DNA of 61,793 nucleotides, the filler included. It is 7 parts of 7 records of this genome, joined end to end, with 100 filler letters (N's around TTAATTAATTAA, not from the genome) between each part and the next. Parts side by side here need not be neighbours in the genome. Positions count along the whole stretch, not along the records: positions 45,656 to 55,550 come from SRR31156797_7027; 6 more parts are not named here. One strand, 5' to 3'. Both the position numbers and the translations under genes were made by a program. How positions within the stretch are numbered: position 1 is the stretch's first letter; each line of letters begins with the position of its first letter. A model generated the notes under the pieces. The model made no database searches and was not told the DNA's origin. It worked only from the letters and a program-made list of their open reading frames with translations. Shown here one piece after another: positions 8,966-55,718 of this stretch.

Positions 8966-9065
8966 NNNNNNNNNNNNNNNNNNNNNNNNNNNNNNNNNNN
9001 NNNNNNNNNTTAATTAATTAANNNNNNNNNNNNNNNNNNNNNNNNNNNNNNNNNNNNNNNNNNNN
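8966..9065. other. Artificial contig spacer (N44-TTAATTAATTAA-N44)
   Basis: Identical spacer at 22072-22171, 28099-28198, 37420-37519, 45556-45655 and 55551-55650; stops in all frames; composition changes across the joins. Confidence 0.98.
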
Positions 9066-18100: not shown

Positions 18101-19238
18101 TCAATTCATAGTCCATAAATTTAGAAACCATCACATTTAACTGAGCTTCATCTTCAGCAGCAATACGCGCAGTAGCAATGTCTGGTAAATCATCACCATC
18201 AACGTCTGCATATTGATTATCTGAAGCATAATCAGATGAAACCACCCATGATGGATGCTCAAAAAGCTGAGAAGTAATACCATCATCACCGGTGCTATAG
18301 TCTGCCAAGAATAAAATAGCATCAACCGGATTACTCCAATTGTTGTATGCATTGTCAATCCATGTCTCGATAGCAGAAACAGTATTTCCTCCGATATCAG
18401 TTGTGGTTTTAACCATTGTAGAAATACCTTGTTTTCTTCTGAATTCAGCTATTTCATTGGCCTTATTGATAAATACCTCATCATCAATCGTGATAATTAC
18501 ATAATCTGCCTCATCATCTTTAGCGCGATTTTCAAATTTAATTTCGCTCAACTGTGGTAATGAGTTATAGTTAACTAAACTTGAGCTCAACATTGATTCC
18601 CATGTTGCACTTCTATACTTTGGATCACCAAACTGGCCATTTCCACCGTCAAAAGTAACCTCCATTCTAACATCACGGTAAACTTTTAAAACTTTAGTAA
18701 CCGGGTTGTACTGGAAAGGCGTTATACCTAACGTTACGAAATCAACTCCGCGAATCTTTCCCGGTTTAGATAACTGAAAAGGATCGGCAGGATAAAATCT
18801 GTCTTGTGAGTACACTTTTTGGTCTTTTTCATACACCAATGGTTTCTCATCAGTATCTACCGGAATAACAGGTGAAGGTGCAATTTCTACATTAGTGTAA
18901 GTTTCAACTCTGTAGTCTGTAACCATTAAATGAGCCTTTGCACCTTGTGGTATTGCAATCATATGGCCATTTCCTGGCAAGTTTGGTTTACCGGCATCAT
19001 TGGGTAAAAGTACACCCGGCATGATAACCGACTTCATTTCATCCCCTTTTATAATTTGAGATTTATACGTAAATTCCTGAACCGAGTAACTAAGTTCAAG
19101 AGCATCAGATTTTTGAGAGGTTACAGTAAGACCCTGCTTTCCCCAATTGTCCGAATAATTAACTTTTTGCGCTTGTAAGCTAAACGCAGCAATAGCTATC
19201 CCTAACACAAGAGATAATTTTTTAGTAAAATAGTTCAT
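15171..19238 (-). CDS. C25 (gingipain-like) cysteine peptidase with propeptide, GEVED, PKD and T9SS sorting domain
   Basis: Propeptide (GKPNLP, PFQYNPV), catalytic QHRDHG and INCQTG, WIDWNYDGDF...GEVEDY, YSWDFGDG, VYPNPSNG...GLYIL...KIIKQ. Confidence 0.9.
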   Translation of the reverse strand: MNYFTKKLSLVLGIAIAAFSLQAQKVNYSDNWGKQGLTVTSQKSDALELSYSVQEFTYKSQIIKGDEMKSVIMPGVLLPNDAGKPNLPGNGHMIAIPQGAKAHLMVTDYRVETYTNVEIAPSPVIPVDTDEKPLVYEKDQKVYSQDRFYPADPFQLSKPGKIRGVDFVTLGITPFQYNPVTKVLKVYRDVRMEVTFDGGNGQFGDPKYRSATWESMLSSSLVNYNSLPQLSEIKFENRAKDDEADYVIITIDDEVFINKANEIAEFRRKQGISTMVKTTTDIGGNTVSAIETWIDNAYNNWSNPVDAILFLADYSTGDDGITSQLFEHPSWVVSSDYASDNQYADVDGDDLPDIATARIAAEDEAQLNVMVSKFMDYELNPPTDAYFYNNPITALGWQTERWFQICSEAIGGFWTNELGKSTVRINAVYEGDPSVDPWSTATNTSTVIDYFGPEGLGYIPATPGELGGWTGGSAADVSDAINSGAFMLQHRDHGMYTGWGEPDFTNANISSLTNIDNKLPFIFSINCQTGAFHNPEDDPTFTEALHRYTYNGENSGALGLIAATEVSYSFVNDAYVWGLYDNFWPEFMPDETTEFPVDFIYPAFGNVAGKIFLYQSSWPYNTESKQITYRLFHHHGDAYLNVYTEVPQNLAVTTADAHVFGNLTMNITADEGAHIAVTYYDNTLQQTIIIGTGIGTGGQSTLTLTELPNPGTQLLVTVTKQNYFRYTKEVMVIAPEGPYDVISGFTIEDENNGVVEFGETFDIDLTVKNVGVDVSEDITVSMTTTDTMVLSLINATDVAVLDLDPEEISITDESFTMSLKNNIEDGYRIQFDVQITDASKEVYESTHSFIVNAPELAIGELSINDMGNADGILDPAETADILIEVENVGLADVTNLAGIISTTSQYLTINADNTNPEILSAGESTTLTFNVTAAGSAPDGTPADIILNVTAGEDNQYEATDTKEVVIGFVPEYCEAGSDNTTDEYIQRVQIGDIDNTSEASSYTDYTDMSTDVTPDSSYALTITNGEHWDSDQMGCWIDWNYDGDFEDEGEYIEVAYSEPDGVATVTVPADAHIGLVTMRVRLIYSGSLEPCGNSSYGEVEDYSLNVMPSVYAGFAYAEPPVICGEGTTTITISNWIGDEIQWHSSNDGENWSAVAEANQSSFETEMLSETAFFKAEVTSAGLDPVTSNVVEIEVVDPPYAMFTCNSDSLELSTVNLCENATSYSWDFGDGEGTSNEMEPVYMYAEEGVYTVTLAASRNYCEDAEYSEVITVTAVSIDELLQSGIRVYPNPSNGVFNVSVENETTLTIFNSTGKLIYQSAINATEVVDITDQANGLYILQFSSGSKVLQTKIIKQ

Positions 19239-21987: not shown

Positions 21988-22171
21988 GTATGAGTATTGA
22001 GTCCCGAAAAACTCAAATTTACAATTTGAATTGTTTTTCGTGGATGCTCGAAAAATTATAAAAATCAGAGANNNNNNNNNNNNNNNNNNNNNNNNNNNNN
22101 NNNNNNNNNNNNNNNTTAATTAATTAANNNNNNNNNNNNNNNNNNNNNNNNNNNNNNNNNNNNNNNNNNNN

Positions 22172-28098: not shown

Positions 28099-28423
28099 NN
28101 NNNNNNNNNNNNNNNNNNNNNNNNNNNNNNNNNNNNNNNNNNTTAATTAATTAANNNNNNNNNNNNNNNNNNNNNNNNNNNNNNNNNNNNNNNNNNNNCC
28201 CCTGTGGGCGCCCGTGTTCCTGACAGTACTTATGGCGTCGCTATAAATCAAGTTAAGCTTTTTATCATTGGGATAATTGAACAATATGTAATTTTCATCT
28301 TGCCAATATTTATGTAAAATCGGATAACAATAGCTGAAATAATTTTGACACAGGATTTGAAAACGCAGCCTTAAAGAAAAAAGATAGTGTTTTCCTATCC
28401 CTTAATGCGGAAGGCATGTAACT

Positions 28424-31447: not shown

Positions 31448-32587
31448 ATGTTCGGCATCAAAATGGGTTTTGCTTACCTTACGCCCGGACAGGCCGTCAT
31501 TATCCTGGTCGGTCTGGGATTCATATATCTGGCAATTAAAAAAGAATGGGAACCTTACGAGCTGCTGCCCATCGGGGCGGGCATGGTGTTGGCCAACCTG
31601 CCCTTGACGGGCCTGACCACGCAGCCGTCGCCCGAACTGGCGCCTGGCATGGCCGGGGTGTTTGGAATTATCCTGAAATACGGTCTATATACCTGGACAA
31701 TTCTGCCCCAGTTTATTTTCTTCGGTATAGGCGCCCTAACCGACTTCGGACCGCTGATCGCCAACCCAAGGGCGTTTTTGCTTGGCGCCGCGGCCCAGAT
31801 AGGCATCTATTCATCATTCGCCGGCGCCATATGGCTCGGTTTCACAATCAAGGAGGCCTGCTCCATCGGCATTGTCGGCGGCGCGGATGGGCCGACAACA
31901 ATATATACAACGGGCCTGCTGGCCCCGGATATCATGGGTATAACAGCCACGGCCGCATATTCCTACATGGCCATGGTGGCTATTATTCAGCCTCCGATCA
32001 TCCGGGCGCTCCTTTCCAAAAAGGAACGGCAGATTCAAATGAAACCCATGCTGCGCAGCGTTTCCAAAACGGAAAAAATCCTGTTCCCCATTTACGCATC
32101 CATCCTCATTATCCTCATCATCCCCAAAAGCGCGCCCCTCGTCGGCATGCTCTTCCTCGGAAACCTGTTCAGGGAAAGCGGCGTGGTTCAGAGACTTAGC
32201 GATACCGCCCAGAACGAACTCATCAATATTATCACCATATTCCTGATGCTTGGCATCGGCGCTTCAATGCCCGCCGAAAAAGTGCTCCACGGCCGGACCT
32301 TGATGGTTCTTATTCTCGGCCTGGCAGCCTTCGCGGTCGGCACCGCCGGTGGAGTTCTCGTCGGCAAGATATTCTCCTGGCTTTCCAAAGAGCCTTTCAA
32401 CCCCATGCTTGGAGCGGCCGGCGTCTCCGCCGTGCCCATGAGCGCCAGAATTGTTCATCATCTGGGCCACCAGGAAAACAAAAAGAACTACCTGCTCATG
32501 CACGCCATGGGAGCCAATGTGGCTGGAGTTATTGGTTCGGCCGTTGCGGGTGGATTTTTCCTGTCTTACTTTGACAAACTGTTCTGA
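31448..32587 (+). CDS. oadB: Na+-translocating carboxybiotin decarboxylase beta subunit
   Basis: EPYELLPIGAG, GALTDFGPLIANP, IGIVGGADGPT, AYSYMA, GAAGVSAVPMSAR, HAMGANVAGVIGSA. Confidence 0.93.
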   Translation: MFGIKMGFAYLTPGQAVIILVGLGFIYLAIKKEWEPYELLPIGAGMVLANLPLTGLTTQPSPELAPGMAGVFGIILKYGLYTWTILPQFIFFGIGALTDFGPLIANPRAFLLGAAAQIGIYSSFAGAIWLGFTIKEACSIGIVGGADGPTTIYTTGLLAPDIMGITATAAYSYMAMVAIIQPPIIRALLSKKERQIQMKPMLRSVSKTEKILFPIYASILIILIIPKSAPLVGMLFLGNLFRESGVVQRLSDTAQNELINIITIFLMLGIGASMPAEKVLHGRTLMVLILGLAAFAVGTAGGVLVGKIFSWLSKEPFNPMLGAAGVSAVPMSARIVHHLGHQENKKNYLLMHAMGANVAGVIGSAVAGGFFLSYFDKLF

Positions 32588-32888
32588 TCAGCGTCCGCCT
32601 GTAAGCAACGCTTACGGGTGGGCGGTATAAAAAGGGGGGCTGCGGTCCCCCTGCCCCAAATATAAATCAACAACAATTAAGATGTGTTATAATGGCTGTA
32701 GGCCTTGATGGCCTACAATGGTGAAAAACAAATTGATTAGGCGTCCAAAAAAAGTGCTTGTTTCCTTCTTGGAGTTTATGTACTCTGAATCCGCGCCATG
32801 GCCTCTTTCATGAAAATAAGGCCCCGACCGGGCAAGGCTTGCGGCGCCGTCTAAACTTCTTTTTATTGACATTATGGGAGCTGATTTT

Positions 32889-34445
32889 ATGGCCAACGAA
32901 GAAAAATATGATGAGCTGGATCGACGCAACGCCGAAGCCCTTTTGGGCGGAGGCCAGGACAGAATTGACGCTCAACATAAAAAGGGCAAACTTACCGCCC
33001 GTGAGCGCATCGAATTGTTCCTCGACGATGGAACCTTTGAGGAGTTCGACCGCTTTGTAGTCCACCGGTGTACGGAATTCGGCATGGACAAAAAGAAATT
33101 TCCCGGCGACGGCGTGGTTACCGGGTACGGCCTGGTGGATGGGCGTCTTGTTTACGTCTTTTCCCAGGATTTCACTGTCTTCGGCGGGTCGCTGAGCGGC
33201 GCCTTCGGACAGAAAATATGCAAAATAATGGACCTGGCCGTCCAAAACGGCGCGCCCCTTATAGGCCTGAATGATTCAGGCGGCGCCCGTATTCAGGAAG
33301 GCGTCGAATCCCTGGGCGCTTATGGCGAGATCTTCAGGCGCAACGTCCTCACCTCGGGAGTGGTCCCCCAAATATCGGTTATCATGGGCCCCTGCGCCGG
33401 CGGCGCGGTCTATTCTCCCGCAATTACCGATTTTACCGTCATGGTGGATAAATCTTCCCACATGTTTATCACCGGCCCCCAGGTAATCAAAACCGTGACC
33501 GGCGAAGACGTGGACCAGGAATCCCTTGGCGGGGCTCTCCGGCATAACTCAACCAGCGGCGTGGCCCATTTCATGGCCAAAAACGACGAAGACGCCCTTA
33601 AAACCGTCCGCGAGCTGCTTTCATTCCTGCCCTCCAGCAACCGCGACGAACCGCGCCGCATCAGAAAATATCATGATATCGACCGCGCCGATATGAACCT
33701 CAGAGACATCATCCCGGAAAATCCCAAAAAACCCTACAACATGAAAGAAATAATAAAAACCGTCCTGGATGATAATTATTTCTTTGAATCCCATAAAAAA
33801 TACGCGCAGAACATGATTACCGGCTTCGGGCGCCTGGCCGGCTTGTCCGTCGGCATCGTCGCCAATAATCCCCGTTTCCTGGCCGGATGCCTCGATATAG
33901 ACGCATCAATGAAATGCGCCCGCTTTGTCAGGTTCTGCGATGCATTTAATATTCCACTGGTCACCTTTGTGGACGTACCCGGATACCTCCCCGGAGTCGC
34001 CCAGGAACACGGCGGCATCATCAAACATGGCGCCAAGATAATATACGCCTATTGTGAAGCCACAGTGCCCAAAGTGACCGTTATCACCCGCAAGGCCTAC
34101 GGCGGAGCGTACGACGTTATGTCCAGCAAGCACCATGGCGGCGACATTAACTTCGCCTATCCCACAGCCGAAATCGCGGTCATGGGCCCCGACGGCGCAG
34201 CCAATATCGTTTTTAGAAAAGAACTGGAAAACGCCGCACCCGAAGACAAGGAAAAGGTCCGCGCGGAACTGGTCGAACAATACAGAAATAACATTGCCAC
34301 ACCCTACAAAGCCGCGGAACTCGGGTATATCGATGAAATCATCAAGCCCGAACAAACCCGAATCAAACTCATCAAGGCGCTGAGGTCGTTAAGGCGTAAA
34401 CAGGAGATTCATCCTCCACGCAAACACGGCAATATACCTCTCTAA
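32889..34445 (+). CDS. mmdA: Methylmalonyl/propionyl-CoA carboxyltransferase (decarboxylase alpha subunit)
   Basis: [62 protein letters not shown]. Confidence 0.9.
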
Positions 34446-34464
34446 ATCCTAATGATGTCGGGAT

Positions 34465-34498
34465 AAAAAAAGCGGCCGGAACAATCACCGGCCGCTCT
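34465..34498. terminator. Hairpin after the carboxyltransferase
   Basis: A7-GCGGCCGG-AACAATCA-CCGGCCGC-TCT. Confidence 0.55.
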
Positions 34499-34714
34499 GC
34501 TATTTCATCGGGGCGATAGACGCCCCCATGTTCAGGGATAATAACAGGCGCAACAAAAATTGCATGTAAAAAAATGCTCAAAATTAAGAACAAAATTTGC
34601 TATGAAAAAATAATCCCTGAATTGGACGTAATCGCGTCCCGGCCGGCGACGCCGAACGAGCCCGGATCAGGCAATGCAAATTCTTGATCGGGATTAAACG
34701 TTAAGTGAAATTTA

Positions 34715-36901
34715 ATGGAGCAGATGTCAGATATGTCCAGCAATGAAAAATCACAAAAAATGGAAGAAACCTGTCTGGAATCTGGATTTTTTTCGGAATT
34801 TCCAACGCCTGACTACGATGAATGGAAAGAGGCCGCTGTTGCCAGCCTGAAAGGCGCGCCTTTTGAAAAAAAGGTGTTTACCAAAACCTATGAAGAAATA
34901 GAGCTGCAGCCCATTTATCGGCGGGAAGACGTCCAGAACCTGCCCCATCAGGGCTCGCTGCCGGGCTTCCCCCCCTATGTCCGGGGAACCGAGCCCGCCG
35001 GGTTCATATTCAAACCATGGGGCATCTCCCAGGAGCTTTCCTGCTCCACTCCTGAAGAATTTAACGCGGTTGCTCTCAATGACCTGAAAAAAGGCCAAAC
35101 CGCCCTTAATATCGTGCTTGACCAACCTACGAAGCTGGGCCTTGATCCCGACCAGGCCGAGGCCGGCCAGGTCGGGTATAAGGGAGTTTCCATGTCCAGC
35201 CTGGCTGATATGAAGACAGCCCTGGACGGCGTCGACCTTTCCGCAACGCCGCTTTTCGTGGAAACCGGACCGACGGCCGTCCCTTTTGCCGCTCTGGCCG
35301 CCGCTCTCGCCGACAGTCGCGGGGAAAGCCCTTCCAACCTCAAAGGGTGCATCGGCGCCGACCCCCTGGGCGAACTGGCCCTTAATGGAACATTACCCAT
35401 TGATCTGTCAACCTCGTACGATTCCATGGCCGCCCTGGGGCAATGGGCCGCCCAAAACGCGCCCGACCTGAAAACCATTCTAATCAGCGGCCGGCCCTAC
35501 CACGACGCCGGAGGCAGCGCCGTCCAGGAACTGGGCTACGCCCTGGCATCCGGAGTTGAATACATTCGCGCCCTTTTGGATCGCGGCCTGGGCATAGACG
35601 AAATAGCCGGGCAGATGATTTTTTCATTTTCCATCGGCTCTAACTTTTTTATGGAAATAGCCAAGCTGAGAGCAGCCAGAATCCTCTGGACCACAGTGAT
35701 CGAAGCTTTCGGCGGCAATGAACAAAGCCAAAAAATGCTTATCCATGGACGGACTTCCGCATACACCAAGACCGCATACGACCCCTACGTAAACATGCTC
35801 CGCAACACTACCGAAGCTTTTGCCGGGGCCATGGGCGGCGTAAACAGCATGCATATCAGCCTGTTTGACGAACCGGTCAGGACGCCGGATGAATTTTCCC
35901 GCCGTGTGTCGCGTAACGTACAGATAATACTTCAAAAGGAATGCCATTTCACCCATCCGGTCGATCCGGCCGGCGGTTCCTGGTACCTCGAAGTCCTGAC
36001 CGACCAGGTCGCTCAAAAAGCATGGGCCCTGTTCCAGGATGTCGAAAAAAACGGGGGCATGTTCAATGCCCTGACCGGCGGCGAACCCCAAAAGTCCGTC
36101 GCTTCCACCGCCGCTAAAAAAGAAGCCGCCCTGAACACTCGCAAGGACTCCCTGATAGGCACGAACAAGTATCCCAACCTTCAGGAAGCGCCTCTGCAAG
36201 ACAGGGAAATTGACTACCAGGCCTTGTATAAAACCCGCGTGGATGAATCAGCCAAATTCAAAAACGCCAGGCAGGATTCAGCTTCCTGGAACGGTTTCTC
36301 CGATTCCAAACCTTCAGCCTCTTCCTTTGCCGCAGCAATCCGGGCCGCCCTGGCGGGCGCCGCGATCGGCGAACTGGCCGGAGCCATGAAATCCGGCGCC
36401 GAGCTCCCGCAAGCGGCAAAGCTCAACATTCGACGCGCATCTGAAAGTTATGAAAGCCTGAGGAAAAACGCGGAAAAAATACTGGAAACCACAGGTAAAA
36501 GTATAAAAGTCTTCCTGGCCAATATGGGGCCCATTCCCCAGCATAAGGCCAGGGCCGATTTTACTATCGGCTTCTTTGAAGTCGGAGGCTTTGAAGTAAT
36601 TAACAACGCCGGATTCGAATCTGTTGAAGACGCGGCCAAGGCGGCCCTGGATTCCGAAGCCCCCATAGTGGTCATTTGTTCAACGGATAAAACTTATCCC
36701 GAACTTGTGCCTCCCCTGGTAAAATTAATCAAGGAAAGCAAACCCGACGTGACCGTGATCCTGGCCGGAAAGCCCGCCGCCGATCACGAAGCCGCATACC
36801 TGGAAGCCGGACTTGACGATTCGATTCATATTCGGGCCAATTGTTATGAAATGCTGGATCGCTTTCAAAAGAAGATCGGGCTGTCGGAAGGGAGTGAATA
36901 A
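34715..36901 (+). CDS. mutA: Methylmalonyl-CoA mutase small (non-catalytic) subunit
   Basis: [50 protein letters not shown]12 domain lacks DxHxxG; followed by the large subunit. Confidence 0.88.
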
Positions 36902-36903
36902 AA

Positions 36904-37419
36904 ATGGCTAAATCTCCTGATTTTTCCAATATACCTTACACAAGGAAGTATGAACCCGCCGACCCGGCCACATGGAAAAAAATGCTTGATGACGCTGCCG
37001 GAAAGGCCATTGAAACCGAAAGAATGACCAATGAGCAGATCCAAATAAAGCCTCTGTATACTGAAAACGATACGGCGGGCATGGAACACCTGGGCTTTAC
37101 GGCCGGTATTCCGCCTTATCTCCGCGGGCCCTACCCGACCATGTACGTAACCAGACCCTGGACCGTGCGTCAGTATGCCGGCTTTTCAACCGCGGAAGAA
37201 AGCAACGCCTTTTACCGCCGCAACCTGGCAGCCGGTCAAAAAGGCCTTTCCATTGCCTTCGACCTGGCCACTCACCGGGGTTATGATTCGGATCATCAGC
37301 GGGTTGTCGGAGATGTCGGCAAGGCCGGCGTGGCCGTGGACTCCATCCTGGACATGAAAATACTCTTTGACAAAATTCCCCTGGATAAAATGTCCGTCTC
37401 CATGACCATGAACGGCGCC
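36904..37419 (+). CDS. mutB: Methylmalonyl-CoA mutase large subunit (3' truncated)
   Basis: [57 protein letters not shown]. Confidence 0.95.
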
Positions 37420-37519
37420 NNNNNNNNNNNNNNNNNNNNNNNNNNNNNNNNNNNNNNNNNNNNTTAATTAATTAANNNNNNNNNNNNNNNNNNNNNNNNN
37501 NNNNNNNNNNNNNNNNNNN

Positions 37520-45554: not shown

Positions 45555-45655
45555 TNNNNNNNNNNNNNNNNNNNNNNNNNNNNNNNNNNNNNNNNNNNNT
45601 TAATTAATTAANNNNNNNNNNNNNNNNNNNNNNNNNNNNNNNNNNNNNNNNNNNN

Positions 45656-45673
45656 CCGGCCGACCTCGACCAG
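45656..45673 (-). promoter_or_regulatory. Putative bacterial SECIS hairpin
   Basis: mRNA CUGGUCG-AGGU-CGGCCGG begins 15 nt after the UGA; 7-bp stem with two G-U pairs and a GGU-containing loop. Confidence 0.7.
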
Positions 45674-45868
45674 TTTCGGTGAGATAATTCACATGGCACA
45701 GTCATTTGTGGGAAAGGTCTTATCCAATTGGGACATCATGCCGCCAATGGAGCTGGTTCTTTCCACAAGGTAGACGTAATATCCGGAATTGGCCATGTCC
45801 AGCGCAGCCTGCATGCCGGTAATGCCACCGCCCACAACCAGGACGGAACCGAGTTTTTCTGTCGACAT
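45656..45868 (-). CDS. hdrA: Heterodisulfide reductase HdrA-like flavoprotein N-terminus with in-frame TGA (predicted selenocysteine); 3' truncated; not in ORF track
   Basis: [59 protein letters not shown](TGA)[14 protein letters not shown] at 45689-45691. Confidence 0.92.
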
Positions 45869-45871
45869 AAA

Positions 45872-46747
45872 CTACTCCTGCGTTATAAAAGAGGTGACAT
45901 TCCCTATGGCCACCCGGTTTTTTTCAAGACCCAATTTCTTCTCGTCCACACCCATGCAAAATCCCAGCAGCTGGGCATAGAGTATGGAGGGGAGGGCGCC
46001 GCCGGTCGCACCATTGCCTGCCATCATGTTCTGAACCTGGTCAAACTGAAGCTGGCAGTAGGGGCAGGCGGTGCACAGGAAATCGGCCCCCGACTCACGG
46101 CCACTGTCCAGTTTCTTCCGGGTCAGATCCATGGAAATTTGGTCATTTACGCCCATTAAAGGTGCACCGCAACAATTGAGCTTTTCGCTCCAGTCCACGC
46201 TTTTTGCACCCGTCGCTTTTACCAGTTCGTCAAAGAGGGTCGGTGCCACCGGATCATCGAACTGGGTTACCTTACTGGGACGTAAGGCATGACACCCATA
46301 ATGGGTCGCGATTTTGAGATCTTTCATTTTTCTGGAGATCTTCTTTTTGAGATCAACAATTCCCACATCGTGGTACAAAACCGAAAGCATATGCTTGACC
46401 TCTACCCGGCCCTGATACGATAGATCTCTCGGTTTTAACAGATCGTTGATTTCCCGGCGCAGGGTCTCTTGCCGGCCAAGGATGTATTGGGCCTCTTTCA
46501 GGGTGCCGTAACAGCATTTGCACAGGGCCATAATGTTGACACCGTCACGTTCAGCCAGGGCGAGGTTACCGGCCGCGGAGAGAAGATAGGCCTTCCGGTC
46601 AACGTTTCTCAGCGGGTAGCCGCAACAGGTGAAATCGCGGTAATCGATTAACCCCACACCCAGACGGGACATGACCGCACGGGAGGCGGTTTCATATTGT
46701 TCAAGTCGGGCAGGAATATTGCAGCCCAGAAAAAAAGCGTATTTCAT
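45872..46747 (-). CDS. hdrB: HdrB-like protein (two CCG domains)
   Basis: FFLGCNIP, TCCG, LCKCC, HYGCH, NCCG, ACPYCQLQFD. Confidence 0.92.
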   Translation of the reverse strand: MKYAFFLGCNIPARLEQYETASRAVMSRLGVGLIDYRDFTCCGYPLRNVDRKAYLLSAAGNLALAERDGVNIMALCKCCYGTLKEAQYILGRQETLRREINDLLKPRDLSYQGRVEVKHMLSVLYHDVGIVDLKKKISRKMKDLKIATHYGCHALRPSKVTQFDDPVAPTLFDELVKATGAKSVDWSEKLNCCGAPLMGVNDQISMDLTRKKLDSGRESGADFLCTACPYCQLQFDQVQNMMAGNGATGGALPSILYAQLLGFCMGVDEKKLGLEKNRVAIGNVTSFITQE

Positions 46748-46799: not shown

Positions 46800-48554
46800 T
46801 TATGCGGCGACCCCCTGTCGGGGATCCTTGATGGCGATATTCTTCAGCTGGTAAAGGATATCCGTTACCTCCACCAGCTGTGGGCAGTGCTCCTGGCACT
46901 GGTAACATGTCACACAATCCCAGATCATGTTGGCGCCACAGGCCATATCCGTGAGGCCAAGGCCTAAGCTGCACATGATCTGGTGGGGCAGCAGACCCAG
47001 TGTTTCTTCAGGTTTTTCAGAGACAGCCACCACCGGACAAACGGTGGTGCAGTTCTGGCAACTGAAACAGGCTCTAAAGGTTTCAGCGTCGTAAGGGAGC
47101 ACGGCCCGGGATTTGGTATCGCCGTTAAAGCTCAGTGAATCGGTCTCCGCGGCAACGGGCCACCCCTTTAGAACCTCATGCCTGGCCATTTCAAGGGGCT
47201 TTGCATAATCATCCGGCGTCAAATTGGGTTGATTCAACCCGCGCACAAAAGAAAACCCGGACAGCATGAGGGTTTCACCTTTGGTGCCGCTCCCAATGAG
47301 GCCTTCCCTCACATTGAGCCACAGATCTCTTAAATTGATGCCCGAAGGGCACACCACGGTGCATCGATCACAATTGGTGCAGATATAGACGCCTTCCTGG
47401 AGGGCTTGACGTTCCGACGGGGAAAGGGATTTCTTTGCTGCCAGTTTTCTAATGGATTGCAACTTTTCCGACGGCAGGATGCAGTCGTTTCCAGTGGCAT
47501 CAAATGCGGGGGATGACGAACACCTGAGACTGCAGGTGCCGCAATGGGTACAGGCATCCAGTTCCAGCATTTGGCGGGTCAGGATATTGGCGGGGTGAGA
47601 ACGCTTTTTATCCATGACCGCATTGGCCATGAGGCTCAAAGGCGTTGTGATAATATGGAACATTTTGCTGAAGGGGAGGTAGGCCAACCCGATGAAGCAG
47701 GCCAGGATATGGATGACCCAGAGGAAATAGGTGGCTTCGGTATCATCAAGATACCGGGCCATGGGCCGCATCCCCTTTGAAAGGTTCACGCTGATAAACG
47801 CCCATGCCGGAACCGCATGGCAACTCTGGCAGCTCATTTCATGGAGTTCCCGCCCCTGGGTCAGCAGCTCCATTTCAAAAGGGCCTGCCACTTTAGGCGA
47901 GACCACCCCGAATTCTTCAACCCAGAAGGCTTCAAGTGCCCTCAACTCTTCTTCATCGTCCGTATCCGCATACTCTTCCACCATGCGCTGAAACTCGTTG
48001 TGGCTGATGATCTTGGCCCCTTCCAGAAAAAACCCGGTGACCATGATGACGGCTACAATCCAGACGGCATAGACGTCCATGGCGTTGGTGCGCAACCGCG
48101 GAACTTTTAGAACGCGCCGACGGTAAATGGCAATGGCCACACCTGCAAAAACCATTAAACCGAAGAGATTCCTCAAGAAAAGATAGGGATGGGCCGTGGA
48201 CGCATACTCCTCGAAAAGAAAATGGCCGGTTCCATCACCGTCAGCAAAAGCATGAATAAACAGCAGCGCCATAAACCCCACAAAGATCAGCATATGCATG
48301 ACCCAGCGCAGGGCGTCTTCCTTGAGGATTCGCCGCTGGAGGATGACATCCAGAATCAGGACCTTTATGAGATCCACAATCCGGGCGCTGAAAATGACGC
48401 CCAGTGTCCCTTTTAGGACTTGGGAAATTCGTTGTCCCGTCGAATAGGGAAGCTCCGGTCCGGTAATCTGTCCCGAAACCCAGGTGTAAAATTTGTAGCC
48501 GAATCCGACAATAAAAATTAACAAAGACCCGTACAGCAGCAGATCAAAAAACAT
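46800..48554 (-). CDS. NarI/HdrE-like cytochrome b plus CxxCH loop plus two HdrC-like 2x[4Fe-4S] domains
   Basis: Transmembrane helices with His pairs (WVMHMLIF...FIHAF; VIHILAC...SKMFHII); CQSCH; CTHCGTCSLRC, CTNCDRCTVVCP, CFSCQNCTTVCP, CVTCYQCQEHCP. Confidence 0.88.
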   Translation of the reverse strand: MFFDLLLYGSLLIFIVGFGYKFYTWVSGQITGPELPYSTGQRISQVLKGTLGVIFSARIVDLIKVLILDVILQRRILKEDALRWVMHMLIFVGFMALLFIHAFADGDGTGHFLFEEYASTAHPYLFLRNLFGLMVFAGVAIAIYRRRVLKVPRLRTNAMDVYAVWIVAVIMVTGFFLEGAKIISHNEFQRMVEEYADTDDEEELRALEAFWVEEFGVVSPKVAGPFEMELLTQGRELHEMSCQSCHAVPAWAFISVNLSKGMRPMARYLDDTEATYFLWVIHILACFIGLAYLPFSKMFHIITTPLSLMANAVMDKKRSHPANILTRQMLELDACTHCGTCSLRCSSSPAFDATGNDCILPSEKLQSIRKLAAKKSLSPSERQALQEGVYICTNCDRCTVVCPSGINLRDLWLNVREGLIGSGTKGETLMLSGFSFVRGLNQPNLTPDDYAKPLEMARHEVLKGWPVAAETDSLSFNGDTKSRAVLPYDAETFRACFSCQNCTTVCPVVAVSEKPEETLGLLPHQIMCSLGLGLTDMACGANMIWDCVTCYQCQEHCPQLVEVTDILYQLKNIAIKDPRQGVAA

Positions 48555-48939
48555 GAACCTATTCCTCACTTACTCCACACAAATAAAAGCGGCAAATCCG
48601 AATACCTCTTCGGTCGGCCTTGTCAGTGTGCCAAAAGAGCCTGACGCGATTTCCCAAAAAACCTTACCACGTAAAGGCTCGATCTATATAGGCGCCGGGG
48701 TTTTGTCAAGAGAAATTTTTCACGAAACCGCATCAGAATGACGCTCCTGCGGTACTTAAGCCCATTTTAACCCGGTCCTCCTAAAGTGAAAACCGGAAGA
48801 ACATTTTGTACTTATATGGCTTGATGGGAACAATTGCCAAGGGCAAACATGGGAGTTGAAAAAAAGATCGTCAATTGGTAAAAAGATCCACATCATCAAA
48901 AGTGAATTGACAAAACCTTTATTTTAAGGAGTTTCCGGT

Positions 48940-50676
48940 TTGGGCTGTGCCATCACATTACAGAATGCAATCAAGGGTTACACATTTGACCAGGATAAAA
49001 TTGTTTCACCTGAGGAGACCGTTAAGCGTTTCAAGAACAGGCTCAAAACAGTGAACCTGGATATCCTGGAAGAAACCGTTCGAATCGACAACGGCAGACT
49101 GGACATCCCCGTCTATTTCAGTGTCTGCGGGCGCGATGCCCTTGAAATCATCGGAACCAAGAAACAGATGGGGAAAGGCGGAACCCCCAGCCAGTCGGAG
49201 GCCAGTGCGGTCATGGAGCTGGCGGAGCGGTTCAGTTTTTTCAGTTTCTGGAAAGACCCCAAAAATTTTCGTCTGGATACCTACAAAAACGTGAAGAATG
49301 AGGCTTTGCCCTTTGAGACCATCGCCAAATCCGTACACGATGAGTCCGGTGAACTGGACAGGGCCCGGGAAATATTTGAAGACCTCCCCCTCAAATGGGC
49401 TCTTGGCTGCAATATGACCAAGAACCGGGAAATCCTGATCCCTTTTGACTGGTTTTTTGCCATTAATGAATTCAACGGACCGTCAGCCGGCAACTGTGTT
49501 GAGGAAGCCCTGAGCCAGGGGATCTGTGAATTGGTGGAACGGCATACGTCCTCCATTGTCAGCCGGGAGAAGGTGAACGTGCCGGCCATTGATCTCGATA
49601 CGGTGACCGATGCCCTGACACGTGAATTGATCGGGAAATTTAAAAATGCGGGAATCGAACTCTTTGCGTCGGATTTTTCTCTGAACATGGGCATTCCCTC
49701 CGTGGGGGTCCTGGCCTATGATCCCACCACATTCCCTCTAAAAAGCGAAATTGTCTGGACCGCCGGCACCACGCCCGACCCCCAGAAATCTTTGAGCCGG
49801 GCCCTCACCGAGGTGGCCCAGCTGGCCGGTGATTTCAATTCCGGGAGCAACTATGTGGCCAGCGGTTTACCCAAATTCCGGGATCTCGCTGAAGCCCGTT
49901 TCATCCTGAATCCGGAAACCACCATTCCCATTAAAAGCCTGCCGAACCTGGGCAACGACAACATCAGGGTGGAGGTGGAAAACTGCATGGGGGCTCTGAA
50001 CGCCAGGGACATGGAGGTGTTTGCCGTTGATGTGATGCACCCCCACCTTCAAATTCCGGCCTTTTATACCATTATTCCGGGCGCCCATTTCAGGGAGAGA
50101 GCCGTGGGGACCAGTGTGGGTATGTTTTGTGCCAAACTGATTGCCGAGTCTGACAACATCTTATGGCGTATTGACCGATTGACCCGAATGGATCGGTTGC
50201 TGCCCCATAAATATTACATTCAGTTTTTTCTGGGCTTGGCGCATATTTCCCTGCAGAACCCCCAAAAGGGTATTGAATTTCTTGAAGAGGCGCTGAAACT
50301 GGGTCCCAAACGGGAGGATATGCCGAGCATTTACTCCTATATGGGGATCTGCCTGCGGGATATGGAACAGTACCGGAAAGCCATTATCGTGCTCGAAAAA
50401 GGGGCTGAGATCGACAGTGAACGGACGGATATTCACAATCTCATGGGATTCTGTTATTTCAAGCTGAAAGAACATAAAAAAGCCATTGAGGCATTTCACA
50501 GGGTTCTGGAGCTGAACCCCGCATCCGCCATCGATTACGCCAATATTGCGTCCAATTACAGGGACATGGGAAACAGGGACATGGCCATCCGGTTCTATAA
50601 ATTTGCCTTGGAACTGGATGAGTCCATTGATTTTGCCAGGGACAATTTAAGAAAGCTGGAAGGGGAACAGGATTGA
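48940..50676 (+). CDS. YcaO-family protein with C-terminal TPRs
   Basis: MGKGGT...SAVMELAER, NGPSAGN...QGICELVERH, RALTEVAQ; four TPR-like repeats; AAGGAG RBS with TTG start. Confidence 0.9.
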   Translation: MGCAITLQNAIKGYTFDQDKIVSPEETVKRFKNRLKTVNLDILEETVRIDNGRLDIPVYFSVCGRDALEIIGTKKQMGKGGTPSQSEASAVMELAERFSFFSFWKDPKNFRLDTYKNVKNEALPFETIAKSVHDESGELDRAREIFEDLPLKWALGCNMTKNREILIPFDWFFAINEFNGPSAGNCVEEALSQGICELVERHTSSIVSREKVNVPAIDLDTVTDALTRELIGKFKNAGIELFASDFSLNMGIPSVGVLAYDPTTFPLKSEIVWTAGTTPDPQKSLSRALTEVAQLAGDFNSGSNYVASGLPKFRDLAEARFILNPETTIPIKSLPNLGNDNIRVEVENCMGALNARDMEVFAVDVMHPHLQIPAFYTIIPGAHFRERAVGTSVGMFCAKLIAESDNILWRIDRLTRMDRLLPHKYYIQFFLGLAHISLQNPQKGIEFLEEALKLGPKREDMPSIYSYMGICLRDMEQYRKAIIVLEKGAEIDSERTDIHNLMGFCYFKLKEHKKAIEAFHRVLELNPASAIDYANIASNYRDMGNRDMAIRFYKFALELDESIDFARDNLRKLEGEQD

Positions 50677-50730
50677 GGGACAATTCCTGTCCCATTTTCT
50701 TGAAAATTGCATCACAAAAAGAGGAAACAC

Positions 50731-51687
50731 ATGATCGAGGTTAATCATCTTACCAAATTTTTTGGAGACAAACTGGCGGTGGACGATATTTCCTTTACCG
50801 TGGAACGGGGCGAAGTGCTGGGATTTTTGGGACCCAATGCCGCGGGAAAGTCAACCACCATGCGCATGATTACCGGTTTTCTCCCCCCCTCCTCGGGGAC
50901 CGCCGCCATCGGGGGGTACGACGTCATCAAAAATTCCCTTCAGGCACGGAAAAAAATCGGGTACCTTCCCGAGAATGCACCGGCCTACCCGGATATGACC
51001 GTTACGGGTTTTCTGGAATTTATCGCCGGTATCAGGGGTTTTTCCGGGGCTTCCAAGAAAGCAAGAATCGAAGATACCCTTGCCCGCTGTTTTTTGACGG
51101 AAGTTCGATTTCAACCCATCAGTACCCTGAGCAAGGGATTTAAACAACGGGTCTGTTTTGCCCAGAGCATTATACACGATCCTGAATATCTCATCATGGA
51201 CGAACCGACCGACGGCCTGGATCCCAATCAGAAACACGAAGTGCGGGTCATGATTCGGGAAATGGCCCGGGATAAAACCATCATCCTTTCAACCCATATC
51301 CTGGAAGAGGTGGAGGCGTTGTGCTCAAGGGCCATCATCATTGCACGGGGCAGAGTTGTGGCGGATGATACCCCATCCGGACTGAAGGCCGAATCATCGC
51401 TCCATGGGGCTGTCCGTTTTACCATTTCTAAGGCCAACGGCAATGATCCCCTTGTTCACTTGAAGGGTATGCCCGAAGTTGAAAGGATGGTTGTGGTCTC
51501 TGAAAATGAATCCCAAACGACCCTTCGCGCTTTTCCAAAAGATCCGGTCCGCCCCCTTGCCAATGAAATCATGGGGCGTCTCGTCAAAAATGGTTTCACC
51601 ATCCATGAATTTCAAGTGGAAAGCGGCCGTCTGGATGAAGTCTTTCGAACGGTCACGAACGCCCATGCCGCGGAGGTGAAAAAATGA
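50731..51687 (+). CDS. ABC transporter ATP-binding protein (GldA-like)
   Basis: GPNAAGKST, LSKGFKQR, IMDEPTDGLDP, STH. Confidence 0.93.
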   Translation: MIEVNHLTKFFGDKLAVDDISFTVERGEVLGFLGPNAAGKSTTMRMITGFLPPSSGTAAIGGYDVIKNSLQARKKIGYLPENAPAYPDMTVTGFLEFIAGIRGFSGASKKARIEDTLARCFLTEVRFQPISTLSKGFKQRVCFAQSIIHDPEYLIMDEPTDGLDPNQKHEVRVMIREMARDKTIILSTHILEEVEALCSRAIIIARGRVVADDTPSGLKAESSLHGAVRFTISKANGNDPLVHLKGMPEVERMVVVSENESQTTLRAFPKDPVRPLANEIMGRLVKNGFTIHEFQVESGRLDEVFRTVTNAHAAEVKK

Positions 51688-52430
51688 GCGATTTTTTGAG
51701 AAACACGGCATGCATTTTAAAACGGGAGTTTACCGGGTATTTCGGAAGCCCGGTGGCATATGTCTTTATTGTTATTTTTCTGCTTCTGAGCGGTTTTTTT
51801 ACCTTTTCCCTCAGCAATTTTTATGAAATGGGCCAGGCGGATTTACGCGCTTTTTTTGAATGGCATCCCTGGATCTTTCTCTTCCTGATCCCCGCGGTGG
51901 CCATGCGGCTTTGGTCCGAGGAGCGACGGACCGGCACCATTGAACTGATCCTGACCCTGCCGGTGACCCTGCCCCAGGTGATCCTGGGGAAATTTCTGGC
52001 GGCCTGGCTGTTCATCGGTGTTGCCCTGGCGTTGACTTTCCCCATGGTATTGACCGTGAGCTATCTGGGGGATCCCGATCTGGGTGCCATTTTCTGCGCT
52101 TACTGCGGCAGCTTCTTCATGGCGGGTGCCTACCTGAGCGTGGGCAACATGACGTCGGCCCTGACCCGGAACCAGGTTGTCAGTTTCATCCTTTCCGTGG
52201 TCATCTGCCTCTTCCTGGTGCTGGCCGGATGGCCCCCCATTACGAACATTTTGTCGGGCTGGGCCCCCATATGGCTGGTGGATGTGGTATCCGGCTTCAG
52301 TTTTATGCCCCATTTCGCTTCCATGGAGCGGGGCGTCATCGATTTAAGAGACCTCTGCTATTATTTTTCGGTTATCTTTTTCATGCTCTTTGCCAACGGT
52401 GTGGTGCTTCAAAGCCGCAGGGCATCCTGA
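51684..52430 (+). CDS. ABC-2 permease (GldF-like)
   Basis: SPVAYVFI, MRLWSEERRTGTIELILTLP, GKFLA, RGVIDLRD. Confidence 0.9.
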   Translation: MSDFLRNTACILKREFTGYFGSPVAYVFIVIFLLLSGFFTFSLSNFYEMGQADLRAFFEWHPWIFLFLIPAVAMRLWSEERRTGTIELILTLPVTLPQVILGKFLAAWLFIGVALALTFPMVLTVSYLGDPDLGAIFCAYCGSFFMAGAYLSVGNMTSALTRNQVVSFILSVVICLFLVLAGWPPITNILSGWAPIWLVDVVSGFSFMPHFASMERGVIDLRDLCYYFSVIFFMLFANGVVLQSRRAS

Positions 52431-52449
52431 AAGACAAGGAGGATTTCCT

Positions 52450-54354
52450 TTGAAAAAAAGACAAAATACAGTTTTCAAGAAGGCCCTTCTTTCCGTAACG
52501 GGGCTGATGGTACTGTTTCTGATTCTGGTCCTGGTGAACATCATGGCCTCCTACGCCAATGTGCGCTGGGATGCCACCGAAGACAAAAGTTACTCCCTTT
52601 CCCAAGGGACCCGTTCCATCCTCGGTTCCATGACCCAGCCGGTGATCGTGAAATTTTTTTATTCCCAAAGCAATCCCGATATTTCGGCCAATATCAAGCT
52701 CTACGCGCGACGCGTGAAAGATTTCCTGACGGAATATGAACGGGAGAGCAACGGTATGATCAAACTGGAGATGATCGACCCCCGGCCGGATTCCGACGAA
52801 GAGGAATGGGCGCAGAAATACGGTCTTCAACCGGTCCAGGCACCCGGAGGAGAACCCATCACCTGTGGGCTGGTCTTTACGGCGGCGGACCAGGAGGAAA
52901 CCGTTGACTGGCTCGATCCATCCAAGGAACAGCTGCTGGAATATGATATTACGAGCATTATTCAAGGATTACAGAATCCGGAAAAGAAGACCGTGGGGAT
53001 TATCACATCCTTGCCGATTTTCGGATCGGGCGCCAGGGCGCCCCGGCCCGGTCAGCCTCCCACTCCCCAATGGATATTCGTAACGGAGTTGAAAAAAATC
53101 TATGACATACAACAAATCAAGCCGACCGTCCGTTTGATTGATCCGGCTCTCGACCTGCTCATGGTGGTATTTCCCAAAAACATGAACCCCCAATTGGAGT
53201 ACGCCATTGATCAGTACGTGCTTTCCGGCGGAAATGCCCTGGTTTTTGTGGATCCCCTGTGCGTATCTTACCGGTCCGGGAGACAGCAGGATTTCATGCG
53301 GTCGTCCGGAAGCGCCCTGGACCAGGTTTTCAAAGCATGGGGCGTGCGCATGGATTCCGCAAAGGCCATCGCGGATTACGGTCAGCCCACCCAGGTCCGC
53401 ACATCCAATACCACCACCGAGGAGAATCCCCTGATGATTTCCGCCAGGGGTGAGGCGTTTAATCGGGAAGATGTGGTTACCGCAGGGCTTGAGAGCATGC
53501 TCTTCCCGGTGGCCGGCGCCATTGTGCGAGATGGGGATAAAGGCACTGCCATTAAAGATTATTCATTTGAGACCTTGGTGGATTCCAGTGAGGACGCGGC
53601 ATTGGTGGATGCTTTCAAGGCGTTTTTGGGTGCCGATGCGGTGAAAAAAGACTTTGTTCCGGCAAAAAAGCGATTTAATGTGATTGTTCGCCTGCAGGGG
53701 ACCTTTAAGACCGCATTTCCGGATGGGCCCCCGAAACCGGAAAGTTCGGATATTCCCCCCGTGGATGAAACGAAATATCCGCAACTGAAGGAAGGGACGA
53801 AATCGTCCACCCTGGTGATTGTGTCCGATGCGGATATGCTGGCGGATAATTTTTATGTCCAGCGCCGCAATATTTTCGGACTTAACGTTTCGGAGATGTT
53901 TAACGACAACCTGAATTTTCTCTCCAATACCTCCGAGATCCTCACCGGGAGTGATGAACTCATAGGTCTCAGGTCCCGGGGGAAAATCGAACGGCCCTTT
54001 ACGGCGGTGCTCGAACTGAAAAAGCGTGCCAAAGCCCAGTGGCTGGGCAAGGAAAAGGAGTTGGTGCAACAAATTGAGCAAACCAACCAAAAACTGCAGC
54101 AACTGGAGAGCGAAAAAGACACATCCCAAAAAATGATTATCAGCCCCCAACAGGAAGCTGAAATTGCCAGGTTCAAGGAACAGAAACAGCAGATCAGCCG
54201 GGAGCTGAAACAGGTTCGAAAAAACCTGCGTGCGGAGATTGAAACCCTGGGGGCCACCCTTAAAGGGGTCAATATATTCCTGATGCCCTTGCTGGTCAGC
54301 ATCGTGGGTATCTGTTTTGCCGTTTATAGACAAAGGAAATTGAGGAGAACATGA
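52450..54354 (+). CDS. GldG-like ABC auxiliary component
   Basis: RWDATEDKSYSLS, LEYDIT, IDQYVLSGGNALVFVDP, C-terminal coiled coil and TM helix; GGAGG RBS before TTG 52450. Confidence 0.85.
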   Translation: MKKRQNTVFKKALLSVTGLMVLFLILVLVNIMASYANVRWDATEDKSYSLSQGTRSILGSMTQPVIVKFFYSQSNPDISANIKLYARRVKDFLTEYERESNGMIKLEMIDPRPDSDEEEWAQKYGLQPVQAPGGEPITCGLVFTAADQEETVDWLDPSKEQLLEYDITSIIQGLQNPEKKTVGIITSLPIFGSGARAPRPGQPPTPQWIFVTELKKIYDIQQIKPTVRLIDPALDLLMVVFPKNMNPQLEYAIDQYVLSGGNALVFVDPLCVSYRSGRQQDFMRSSGSALDQVFKAWGVRMDSAKAIADYGQPTQVRTSNTTTEENPLMISARGEAFNREDVVTAGLESMLFPVAGAIVRDGDKGTAIKDYSFETLVDSSEDAALVDAFKAFLGADAVKKDFVPAKKRFNVIVRLQGTFKTAFPDGPPKPESSDIPPVDETKYPQLKEGTKSSTLVIVSDADMLADNFYVQRRNIFGLNVSEMFNDNLNFLSNTSEILTGSDELIGLRSRGKIERPFTAVLELKKRAKAQWLGKEKELVQQIEQTNQKLQQLESEKDTSQKMIISPQQEAEIARFKEQKQQISRELKQVRKNLRAEIETLGATLKGVNIFLMPLLVSIVGICFAVYRQRKLRRT

Positions 54355-55475
54355 ACAAGAGGACTCTATTCATTTTACTGGTTGTTCTGGCGGTTCTGGC
54401 GGGAGTGGGAAGATCCATTTTTATGGATCGGCCCGATGATTCGGTTCGCAATGATGCCATGGGGACGGTGATCTTCAAGAGACTTCCGGCCAATGAGATT
54501 TCATCCATTTCCATGGATCGGCCCGATGATTCGGTCATGCTGGTGAAAGAAAAAGGCGTCTGGATCGTGCAAAACCGTTTTGGCTACCCTGCGGATTTTT
54601 CCAAAATCACCGACCTCATTCGAAAGCTGAAAAAGACCAAGGTGGGCCGAAATTTTCCGGCCTCCGAGTCGGTTTCAAAACGCCTTTCGCTGATTCCTCC
54701 CACGGATAAGGGCGCCGCCCGGGAGGATAAAGCCACTCGAATTCAAATGAAAGACAAGGGCGAAACCGTTATGGTCGATATCCTTCTGGGCAACACACGG
54801 AAAAGAGGAGAGAAGGGCGTGCCCGATTCCCAGTTTGTCATGCTGGCCGGTGGCACGGATATTTATCTGGTGGACCAGATTTTTTCTCCCTTTGACACCG
54901 CCGCCCCCTCATGGCTCCAAAAGAATCCCATCAAAGTAATCCGAGAAGATATTCAAAAAATTGCCTGTGTGGGACCTGATGGCACCGTGCGCTACAGTTT
55001 TGAGCGCGCCCAGGGGAAAGATTTTGCACTGGTCAGTCCGCCCACAAAGGGGACTGTTAAACAATCGGATTTAAACCGGCTTGCCGGTGCGTTGGCCGGG
55101 CTTGAGATTGAAGACGTGGCGGACCCTTCGAGTCCCCCTGAGTCCCTTGCAACCGGTATTTCACCCCGTCTTGATTTTACTCTTTTTGACGGTATCACCT
55201 ACCATGTTTATCCCGGGATTACCTGTTCACCGGGCATTCCCTGCTATGTGCGGATTCAGGTGGATTACAAGCGCCCGACTGCCGGAACGGCATCAGGGGG
55301 AGACGCATCGAAAGACAAGGAAAGTACCGAAGACAAAAGCGATGGCGCATTGGTGGCAAAAGCCAAGGAAATGAACGGCCGTCTGGCCCCATGGTTTTTT
55401 GTCGTTCCCCAACGGCAGCATCAGGCTTTCTTCACCACCCTGGGTGAAATGTTGGAAGACAAAACTAAGAAATAG
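54351..55475 (+). CDS. DUF4340-like membrane-anchored protein
   Basis: N-terminal TM helix; W...GYPAD motif; usual fourth gene of Gld-like ABC operons; ATGA overlap. Confidence 0.75.
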   Translation: MNKRTLFILLVVLAVLAGVGRSIFMDRPDDSVRNDAMGTVIFKRLPANEISSISMDRPDDSVMLVKEKGVWIVQNRFGYPADFSKITDLIRKLKKTKVGRNFPASESVSKRLSLIPPTDKGAAREDKATRIQMKDKGETVMVDILLGNTRKRGEKGVPDSQFVMLAGGTDIYLVDQIFSPFDTAAPSWLQKNPIKVIREDIQKIACVGPDGTVRYSFERAQGKDFALVSPPTKGTVKQSDLNRLAGALAGLEIEDVADPSSPPESLATGISPRLDFTLFDGITYHVYPGITCSPGIPCYVRIQVDYKRPTAGTASGGDASKDKESTEDKSDGALVAKAKEMNGRLAPWFFVVPQRQHQAFFTTLGEMLEDKTKK

Positions 55476-55718
55476 CGCGCTGAAAAATTCAGATGGATTG
55501 GTAGAAGTTTTTCGGATTAAAGGGTGCAGGGGACAGTTGTCAGGGGGCAGNNNNNNNNNNNNNNNNNNNNNNNNNNNNNNNNNNNNNNNNNNNNTTAATT
55601 AATTAANNNNNNNNNNNNNNNNNNNNNNNNNNNNNNNNNNNNNNNNNNNNTGAATCTTTTTTGAATTAAAAAATATATAATTCATTTTGACTTAGAAAAA
55701 CAATTGAGGTGATAAAGA

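Follow-up and report, generated by a model that had tools for sequence, protein, structure and literature searches.

The truncated hdrA gene and its surroundings

The stretch of DNA analysed here (the window) comprises 61,793 bases and consists of seven contigs joined by six artificial spacers. The gene of interest, a truncated member of the hdrA family, occupies the far left end of the sixth contig (positions 45656-55550, 9.9 kb; SRR31156797_7027), where it is encoded on the minus strand and stops at 45656 because the contig stops there. The features at this locus are as follows:

45656..45868, minus strand: 5' fragment of a predicted fused double-HdrA selenoprotein gene, 71 of ~1006 codons (translation; PDB HdrA matches; identity to the start of the gene at related locus L001)
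45866..45868, minus strand: ATG start, 3 nt past the TAG stop of the hdrB-like gene (start shared by 17 full-length orthologues)
45875..45879, minus strand: AGGAG, a Shine-Dalgarno-like element 6 nt before the ATG (read from the sequence; putative function)
45698..45700, minus strand: codon 57, TGT (Cys), first Cys of CxxU, aligned with Cys194 of 5odc_A (translation and structure alignment)
45689..45691, minus strand: codon 60, TGA, predicted to be read as Sec, aligned with Cys197 of 5odc_A and with position 197 of 9sfi_A (alignment and orthologues)
45656..45673, minus strand: bacterial SECIS-type hairpin, with the 5' arm at 45673-45667, the loop AGGU at 45666-45663 and the 3' arm at 45662-45656, lying over codons 66-71 (LVEVGR)
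45872..46747, minus strand: hdrB-like gene of the same operon, 291 aa, two CCG domains (Pfam CCG, 2e-25; TIGR03288, 253.6 bits, below the 345.15 cut-off)
46800..48569, minus strand: membrane Fe-S protein, 589 aa, first gene of the cluster, HdrC/QmoC-like (NarI-like match; same gene order at related locus L008)
45556..45655, no strand: artificial contig spacer N44-TTAATTAATTAA-N44, adjoining the cut end of the gene
8966-9065, 22072-22171, 28099-28198, 37420-37519 and 55551-55650, no strand: the other five spacers, likewise N44-TTAATTAATTAA-N44

A sequence-only reading of this DNA had placed an unannotated open reading frame 3 nt after the hdrB stop, and this position is borne out on the minus strand by the ATG at 45868 and the TAG of the hdrB-like ORF at 45872-45874. 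Under translation table 11 the frame yields a 59-aa ORF (45689..45868, minus strand), and with TGA read as U it comprises 71 codons (45656-45868). The HdrA-like sequence that the same reading had described past the TGA is present; however, in the window it extends over only 11 codons (33 nt) before the contig ends, and the final base of the hairpin is the final base of the contig. A tblastn search with the L001 protein found no remainder of hdrA elsewhere in the window and returned only the 71-aa fragment, together with a weak self-similar match of the FAD motif of module 2 at the same place. Over its 71 residues the fragment shares 97.2% identity with the beginning of the L001 gene product (1006 aa), and the 36 nt from the TGA onward are identical in the window, L001 and L002. 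Two independent assemblies break within 33 nt past the Sec codon, namely the window contig (at 45656) and CAZPQA010000022.1 (L003, 7060-7070), the latter 8 nt after the TGA. As a matter of speculation, assemblies may tend to break repeatedly at the near-invariant stretch of motif plus hairpin that hdrA paralogues have in common.

In the 589-aa product of the gene that opens the cluster, some six hydrophobic segments precede four CxxCxxCxxxC motifs, and there are weak matches to QmoC and HdrC. The order of the three genes (membrane Fe-S protein, hdrB-like, double hdrA) recurs at L008, which lies on the 8.16-Mb Desulfatiglandales chromosome OY759599.1; at that locus no mvhD/vhuD or hydrogenase subunit genes were found around hdrA. 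Since hdrA comes after the genes for a membrane Fe-S protein and an HdrB-like protein, the cluster suggests a membrane-anchored Hdr-like electron-transfer complex of a Desulfatiglandales/Desulfobacteraceae-like bacterium. Divergently from the hdr cluster, on the plus strand (48940-55475), the contig encodes a YcaO-TPR protein (578 aa), an ABC ATPase, an ABC-2 permease, an ABC_transp_aux/DUF7088 protein and a DUF4340 protein; a YcaO gene is also found beside the cluster at L008, with an AAA_21 ATPase gene in between.

The G+C contents of contigs 1 to 7 are, in order, 0.32, 0.37, 0.48, 0.50, 0.43, 0.52 and 0.31. Contig 1 encodes spore-germination permeases, and contigs 2 and 5 encode proteins with type-IX-secretion (T9SS) sorting domains. 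Because the G+C content differs so widely (0.31-0.52) and the gene content is mixed, one common organism for all contigs cannot be assumed, and the other six contigs probably derive from another organism or several. On contig 2, a 1355-aa peptidase of family C25 (gingipain-type) with propeptide, GEVED, PKD and T9SS sorting domains is encoded at 15171-19238 (minus strand), which indicates a Bacteroidota-like origin of this contig. On contig 4, the plus-strand run at 31448-37419 includes genes for an oxaloacetate-decarboxylase beta subunit, a carboxyltransferase and two methylmalonyl-CoA mutases, the second of which is cut by the contig end; this run looks like a methylmalonyl-CoA pathway cluster.

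Related loci and the fused double HdrA

The window fragment aligns without gaps to five PDB HdrA chains (E-values from 1e-24 to 5e-19) and matches Pfam FAD_oxidored (2.8e-10). Its FAD-binding GxGxxG fold is followed by the DKTFPTxDCxxC/U motif, which places it in the HdrA family. The window covers residues 1-71 only; the composition of the complete protein was deduced from the orthologue at L008, in which all HdrA domains are present, spread over two fused modules, and align with 5odc_A as follows:

L008 protein 9-370, 5odc_A 146-501: FAD domain with inserted ferredoxin domain
L008 protein 456-625, 5odc_A 4-173: N-terminal cluster domain and second FAD motif
L008 protein 858-1004, 5odc_A 499-647: C-terminal ferredoxin domain

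Module 1 of the relatives thus carries the FAD domain, the inserted ferredoxin and the CxxU site and lacks the N-terminal domain, and the DKTFPTxDCxxC motif is absent from the second FAD module of the L008 protein. From this split of domains, and from the restriction of the motif to module 1, we conclude that the protein is a fused double HdrA in which the Cys197-type residue and the N-terminal domain lie on opposite halves. The orthologue (P0002) scores below both NCBIfam equivalog cut-offs (953.7 bits against 1100 for HdrA2, and 761.2 against 1400 for HdrA), and is therefore a member of the HdrA family but no equivalog of the subunit in the CoB-CoM enzyme. The name HdrA given to the gene in the sequence-only reading accordingly holds at the level of the family, but the product is a fused double HdrA of roughly 1006 aa, neither a plain HdrA nor an HdrL. 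We considered HdrL as an identity and rejected it, the second half of the protein aligning to HdrA and no mvhD being located downstream at L008.

Relatives of the locus were collected by scanning the HdrB-like protein against one genome per species, which gave 80 loci. The best of them (HdrB-like proteins 86-92% identical) come from MAGs titled Desulfobacteraceae, Desulfatiglandales or Deltaproteobacteria and from strain NaphS2 (L027), whose hdrB is 88% identical along the 110 residues present up to its contig end; a literature search on NaphS2 and selenoproteins returned nothing relevant. At 20 of the 22 best-scoring loci hdrA directly follows hdrB and has a TGA at the same codon, and the fetched stretches of the other two (L015 and L019) contain no hdrA. 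Across the 80 loci 58 motif sites were recovered: 31 with TGA, 26 with TGC or TGT, and one regular-expression mis-hit at L035, whose true site is also TGA. Of the Cys sites, 24 belong to Bathyarchaeia MAGs, one to a Dehalococcoidia MAG and one to an Acidobacteriota MAG. On the minus strand of L035, near 225-323, a ten-residue coding stretch occurs twice in tandem just before the TGA; this repeat is a genuine duplication of 30 nt or else arose in assembly.

Seventeen of the genes are full-length (1006-1012 aa), and each of them contains exactly one in-frame TGA, beyond which ~946 codons stay open. When residues 1-300 of the L008 protein were used as a database query, 119 of the 120 matches listed were full-length proteins of ~1000 aa with Cys at the site and unchanged sequence context around it, up to 79% identical to the query; names given at the source include 'heterodisulfide reductase subunit A' and 'CoB--CoM heterodisulfide reductase iron-sulfur subunit A family protein'. 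The sole exception among those listed is a 930-aa call, 92% identical, that begins after the TGA. Thus, the alternation of Cys and TGA codons among homologues, which had been proposed as a check on the Sec reading, was found, and a degraded downstream frame, named beforehand as a finding that would speak against that reading, was looked for and is not what the 17 orthologues show: their frame is open and conserved.

Four loci depart from this pattern. At L010, L011 and L014, three long-read MAG loci in which hdrA starts at about 6880, the frame is lost 160-450 codons past the Sec codon, and at L022 (7054-7260) the gene ends, in different sequence, at codon 128. A second Sec codon in these four genes was considered and rejected, as there is no HdrA resemblance beyond the early stops; for the same reason, the stops are ascribed to frameshifts or to a different gene end. 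The loss of frame at L010, L011 and L014 looks like the result of indel errors or decay.

The SECIS-type hairpin and the reading of the TGA

The hairpin CUGGUCG-AGGU-CGGCCGG, which the sequence-only reading had described 15 nt after the TGA, is present and has a 7-bp stem. Of the folds open to the 36 nt available in the window, it has the lowest energy (-9.6 kcal/mol); dinucleotide shuffles fold equally well or better in 37 of 200 cases (z = -0.84). Because the fold by itself is within chance, the significance of the hairpin rests on comparison with the related loci. To obtain synonymous entropy, we aligned the 17 full-length genes by codon and calculated normalised values for 458 seven-codon windows. 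Codons 65-71 (KLVEVGR) have an entropy of 0.0, the lowest of all 458 (gene mean 0.69), and synonymous variation is free in the flanking codons, both the four before KLVEVGR and those after it. The 18-mer of the hairpin, CTGGTCGAGGTCGRCCGG, is present in 29 loci, always as a single copy, and has a single match in the window as well (none in 100 shuffles); in the set of 60-nt sequences it begins 15 nt past the TGA in 26 of 26 distinct carriers. Its sole variation is a G to A change in four of 28 distinct sequences, which converts a U.G pair into U-A and Gly into Asp.

A hairpin with GGU in the loop was found in all 28 distinct TGA-type sequences and in only one of the 26 Cys-type sequences, with mean fold energies of -10.5 and -3.5 kcal/mol, respectively; the Cys-type set, of which 24 of 26 sites belong to Bathyarchaeia MAGs, is mostly archaeal and is thus neither an independent nor a closely matched control. 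Together with the minimum of synonymous entropy, this comparison shows conservation in excess of what the protein requires. Within the aligned set, none of the seven hairpin pairs displays a two-sided compensatory change. RNAalifold applied to 60 nt gave only the 7-bp helix, with no lower SECIS stem or longer structure, and a scan of L008 (6880-7400) found no match to the Rfam SECIS families at E-values up to 10, the only hit being a chance lncRNA match. At L055 and L064 (7059-7118 in each), which come from an uncultured-bacterium MAG and a Candidatus Aminicenantes MAG, the TGA is kept and a different 7-bp hairpin, GGAUGUC-GGUC-GACAUCC, is located a few nucleotides further on; we take these as cases in which the SECIS was replaced or diverged and the Sec codon stayed.

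The bacterial SECIS model, as given in the legend to Fig. 2 of PMC13188914, has a loop of 3-9 nt, an upper stem of 4-16 bp, a G in the first two loop positions, a distance of 16-37 nt between the UGA and the loop, and a minimum free energy of -7.5 kcal/mol or lower. The window element agrees with that legend in every respect: its loop is 4 nt long and starts with AG and then G, its stem has 7 bp, its distance to the UGA is 22 nt and its fold energy is -9.6 kcal/mol. By analogy with the general bacterial mechanism, SelB loaded with Sec-tRNA(Sec) would be brought by the hairpin to a ribosome that has paused at the UGA. The window itself contains no tRNA-Sec (only a tRNA-Arg was found), and Pfam searches of its 47 ORFs gave no match to SelA, SelB or SelD; this says little, since the contig is 9.9 kb long and the other contigs are probably from other organisms.

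Three other explanations of the TGA were weighed. If it were a true stop, the locus would hold a pseudogene or a gene for a 59-aa peptide only, in keeping with the ORF obtained under table 11 and with the output of gene callers: of the 120 proteins listed in a database search for sequences of the fragment's length, 46 are 59-aa stubs ending directly before the TGA. However, a TGA recurs at the same codon in 31 of the 58 motif sites, at loci whose HdrB proteins are as little as 35% and as much as 92% identical, and a dead gene would keep neither the ~946 open and conserved codons seen in 17 genes nor a hairpin with zero variation, and so termination at this codon is very improbable. A sequencing or assembly error that turned TGC or TGT into TGA at a low-quality contig end might be suspected from the position of the codon, 33 nt from that end. 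The exact match of the 36 nt from the TGA onward to L001 and L002, the same TGA in independent assemblies and the identical 59-aa stub recorded on 107 contigs make such an error extremely improbable.

It could also be supposed that the UGA is read as an amino acid other than Sec, by a reassigned code or by near-cognate read-through, as the frame is open under any code in which TGA is a sense codon. Reassignment is contradicted by the use of TGA as the terminator of the same gene in most orthologues and of four of the seven other ORFs on the contig, two of them in ATGA start/stop overlaps and none with an internal TGA. Moreover, the site aligns with Cys (in 119 of the 120 matches listed) and never with Trp or Gly, and the hairpin that fits the SECIS model is kept where the TGA is present (28/28 against 1/26), all of which leaves this explanation with a very low probability. 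We therefore return to the reading proposed from the sequence alone, in which the UGA stands at the position of a conserved Cys of HdrA and is decoded as Sec with the help of a downstream SECIS; this reading is supported by the Cys/TGA alternation, the 17 orthologues, the synonymous conservation and the fit to the bacterial SECIS model. On this comparative evidence, codon 60 of the truncated hdrA-family gene is very probably decoded as Sec, with the 18-nt hairpin as a bacterial SECIS, and the gene almost certainly belongs to the HdrA-type redox flavoprotein genes with a Sec-UGA, from a sulfate-reducer-like bacterium.

The sequence-only reading had also predicted that pipelines would call the gene truncated. 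The 59-aa stubs in the databases bear this out; however, the gene is also truly cut, by the contig end after 71 codons. Standard gene callers split the family into a 59-aa stub and a remainder of roughly 900 aa, and the orthologue group is abundant in public MAGs and usually mis-called. As a consequence of this splitting, reconstructions of energy metabolism from MAGs of sulfate reducers undercount both intact Hdr-like complexes and selenium dependence. The near-invariant 18-nt hairpin offers a handy marker for such genes in metagenomes. The main significance of the locus is thus one of annotation; in biological terms, it is a further case of Sec at the canonical site of HdrA.

Predicted role of the Sec residue and comparison with known HdrA systems

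The complete protein, known from the relatives, would be a fusion of two HdrA modules of roughly 1006 aa that acts as its own heterodimer, with Sec60 as the equivalent of Cys197/Sec197 in methanogen HdrA. Sec at position ~200 is described as the 'canonical' HdrA site (PMC4989117). Two published readings of this residue bear on its role. In a crystal structure, Cys197 coordinates the N-terminal [4Fe-4S] cluster of the partner HdrA protomer, and in tandem or fused HdrAs Cys197 and the N-terminal domain lie on complementary halves (PMC9012536). In HdrA of Methanococcus maripaludis (9SFI), continuous cryo-EM density from Cys to Sec197 (U197) was read as a selenosulfide, and the same 2026 structure paper calls the role of Sec197 unresolved (PMC13518236). 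Sec60 would most likely serve the [4Fe-4S] cluster of the N-terminal-type domain of module 2, either as a selenolate ligand or through a selenosulfide relay with Cys57. Sec as an Fe-S ligand, as the sequence-only reading had it, is therefore plausible as one of the two published readings.

The alternative, in which Sec60 does not ligate a cluster but pairs reversibly with Cys57 in a selenosulfide, passing electrons between FAD and an Fe-S cluster, draws on the M. maripaludis density (PMC13518236) and on the CxxU spacing preserved in the window fragment; set against it are the ligation of the partner's N-terminal [4Fe-4S] cluster by Cys197 (PMC9012536) and the same complementarity of the Cys197 position and the N-terminal domain in the orthologues. 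We regard a relay as possible but less likely than not. A more specific proposal, which we offer as a rather unlikely one, is that the cluster encodes an uncharacterised membrane-anchored, quinone-linked flavin-based bifurcating or confurcating complex of Desulfatiglandales-type sulfate reducers, in which the selenolate of module 1 would ligate the [4Fe-4S] cluster of module 2 within one chain. If so, the fusion, in which Sec and the N-terminal domain each occur once, would be better suited than the symmetric methanogen dimer to deciding between ligand and relay.

HdrA has been described as a bacterial selenoprotein family since 2006, with 16 genes, seven of them in Syntrophobacter fumaroxidans, and with mention of hdrA-hdrA fusions (PMC1794560); since Sec-containing HdrA proteins of Deltaproteobacteria have been in print for that long, the window gene belongs to a known kind of selenoprotein gene. 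The deltaproteobacterial proteins (Syntrophobacter fumaroxidans, Syntrophus aciditrophicus and Desulfotalea psychrophila; PMC1794560) are from the same phylum and include fusions of two hdrA genes. Desulfobacterium autotrophicum, for which Sec-containing HdrA1, HdrA2, HdrL1 and HdrL3 are reported (PMC2702500), is of the same phylum too, and its HdrA1 and HdrA2 are likewise bacterial HdrA selenoproteins. The operons described for these organisms have the order glpC-hdrA-frhD-frhG-frhA, or hdrA followed by mvhD (PMC1794560, PMC2702500), whereas the order here is membrane Fe-S protein, hdrB-like, double hdrA. HdrL of D. autotrophicum is likewise a large HdrA-derived selenoprotein of a sulfate reducer; however, it joins heterodisulfide reductase to glutamate synthase, has an NADH site and is followed by mvhD (PMC2702500), and in the present protein the second half is HdrA.

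The product of the first gene of the cluster resembles QmoC, HdrE plus HdrC, and DsrMK-type modules in combining a NarI-like membrane domain with HdrC-like [4Fe-4S] motifs, but its scores are far below the family cut-offs (qmoC, 76.2 bits against 300), it has four cluster motifs, and a separate HdrB-like protein is encoded next to it.

Sec-HdrA of Methanococcales (M. maripaludis, 9SFI/9T1S) belongs to the same family and has Sec at the same residue: codon 60 aligns without gaps to position 197, and the DKTFPTxDCxxU motif is shared. The methanococcal protein has ~660 aa and an N-terminal domain of its own, whereas the present one starts 8 residues before the FAD motif and has a fused second module. 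For archaea, PMC13188914 and PMC4989117 place the SECIS within the 3' end of the gene or adjacent to it; here the hairpin lies within the coding sequence, 15 nt past the UGA. A further difference from Methanococcales is the lack of vhuD/mvhD after the gene at L008. Parallels in module content are the fused double HdrA of MetFV-HdrABC-MvhD from Moorella thermoacetica and HdrA3/HdrA4 of ANME (PMC9012536), which likewise have two modules per chain, one Cys197 position and one N-terminal domain. In the ANME fusions the N-terminal domain is in the first module and Cys197 in the second (PMC9012536); in the double HdrA described here this order is reversed, and the residue is predicted to be Sec.
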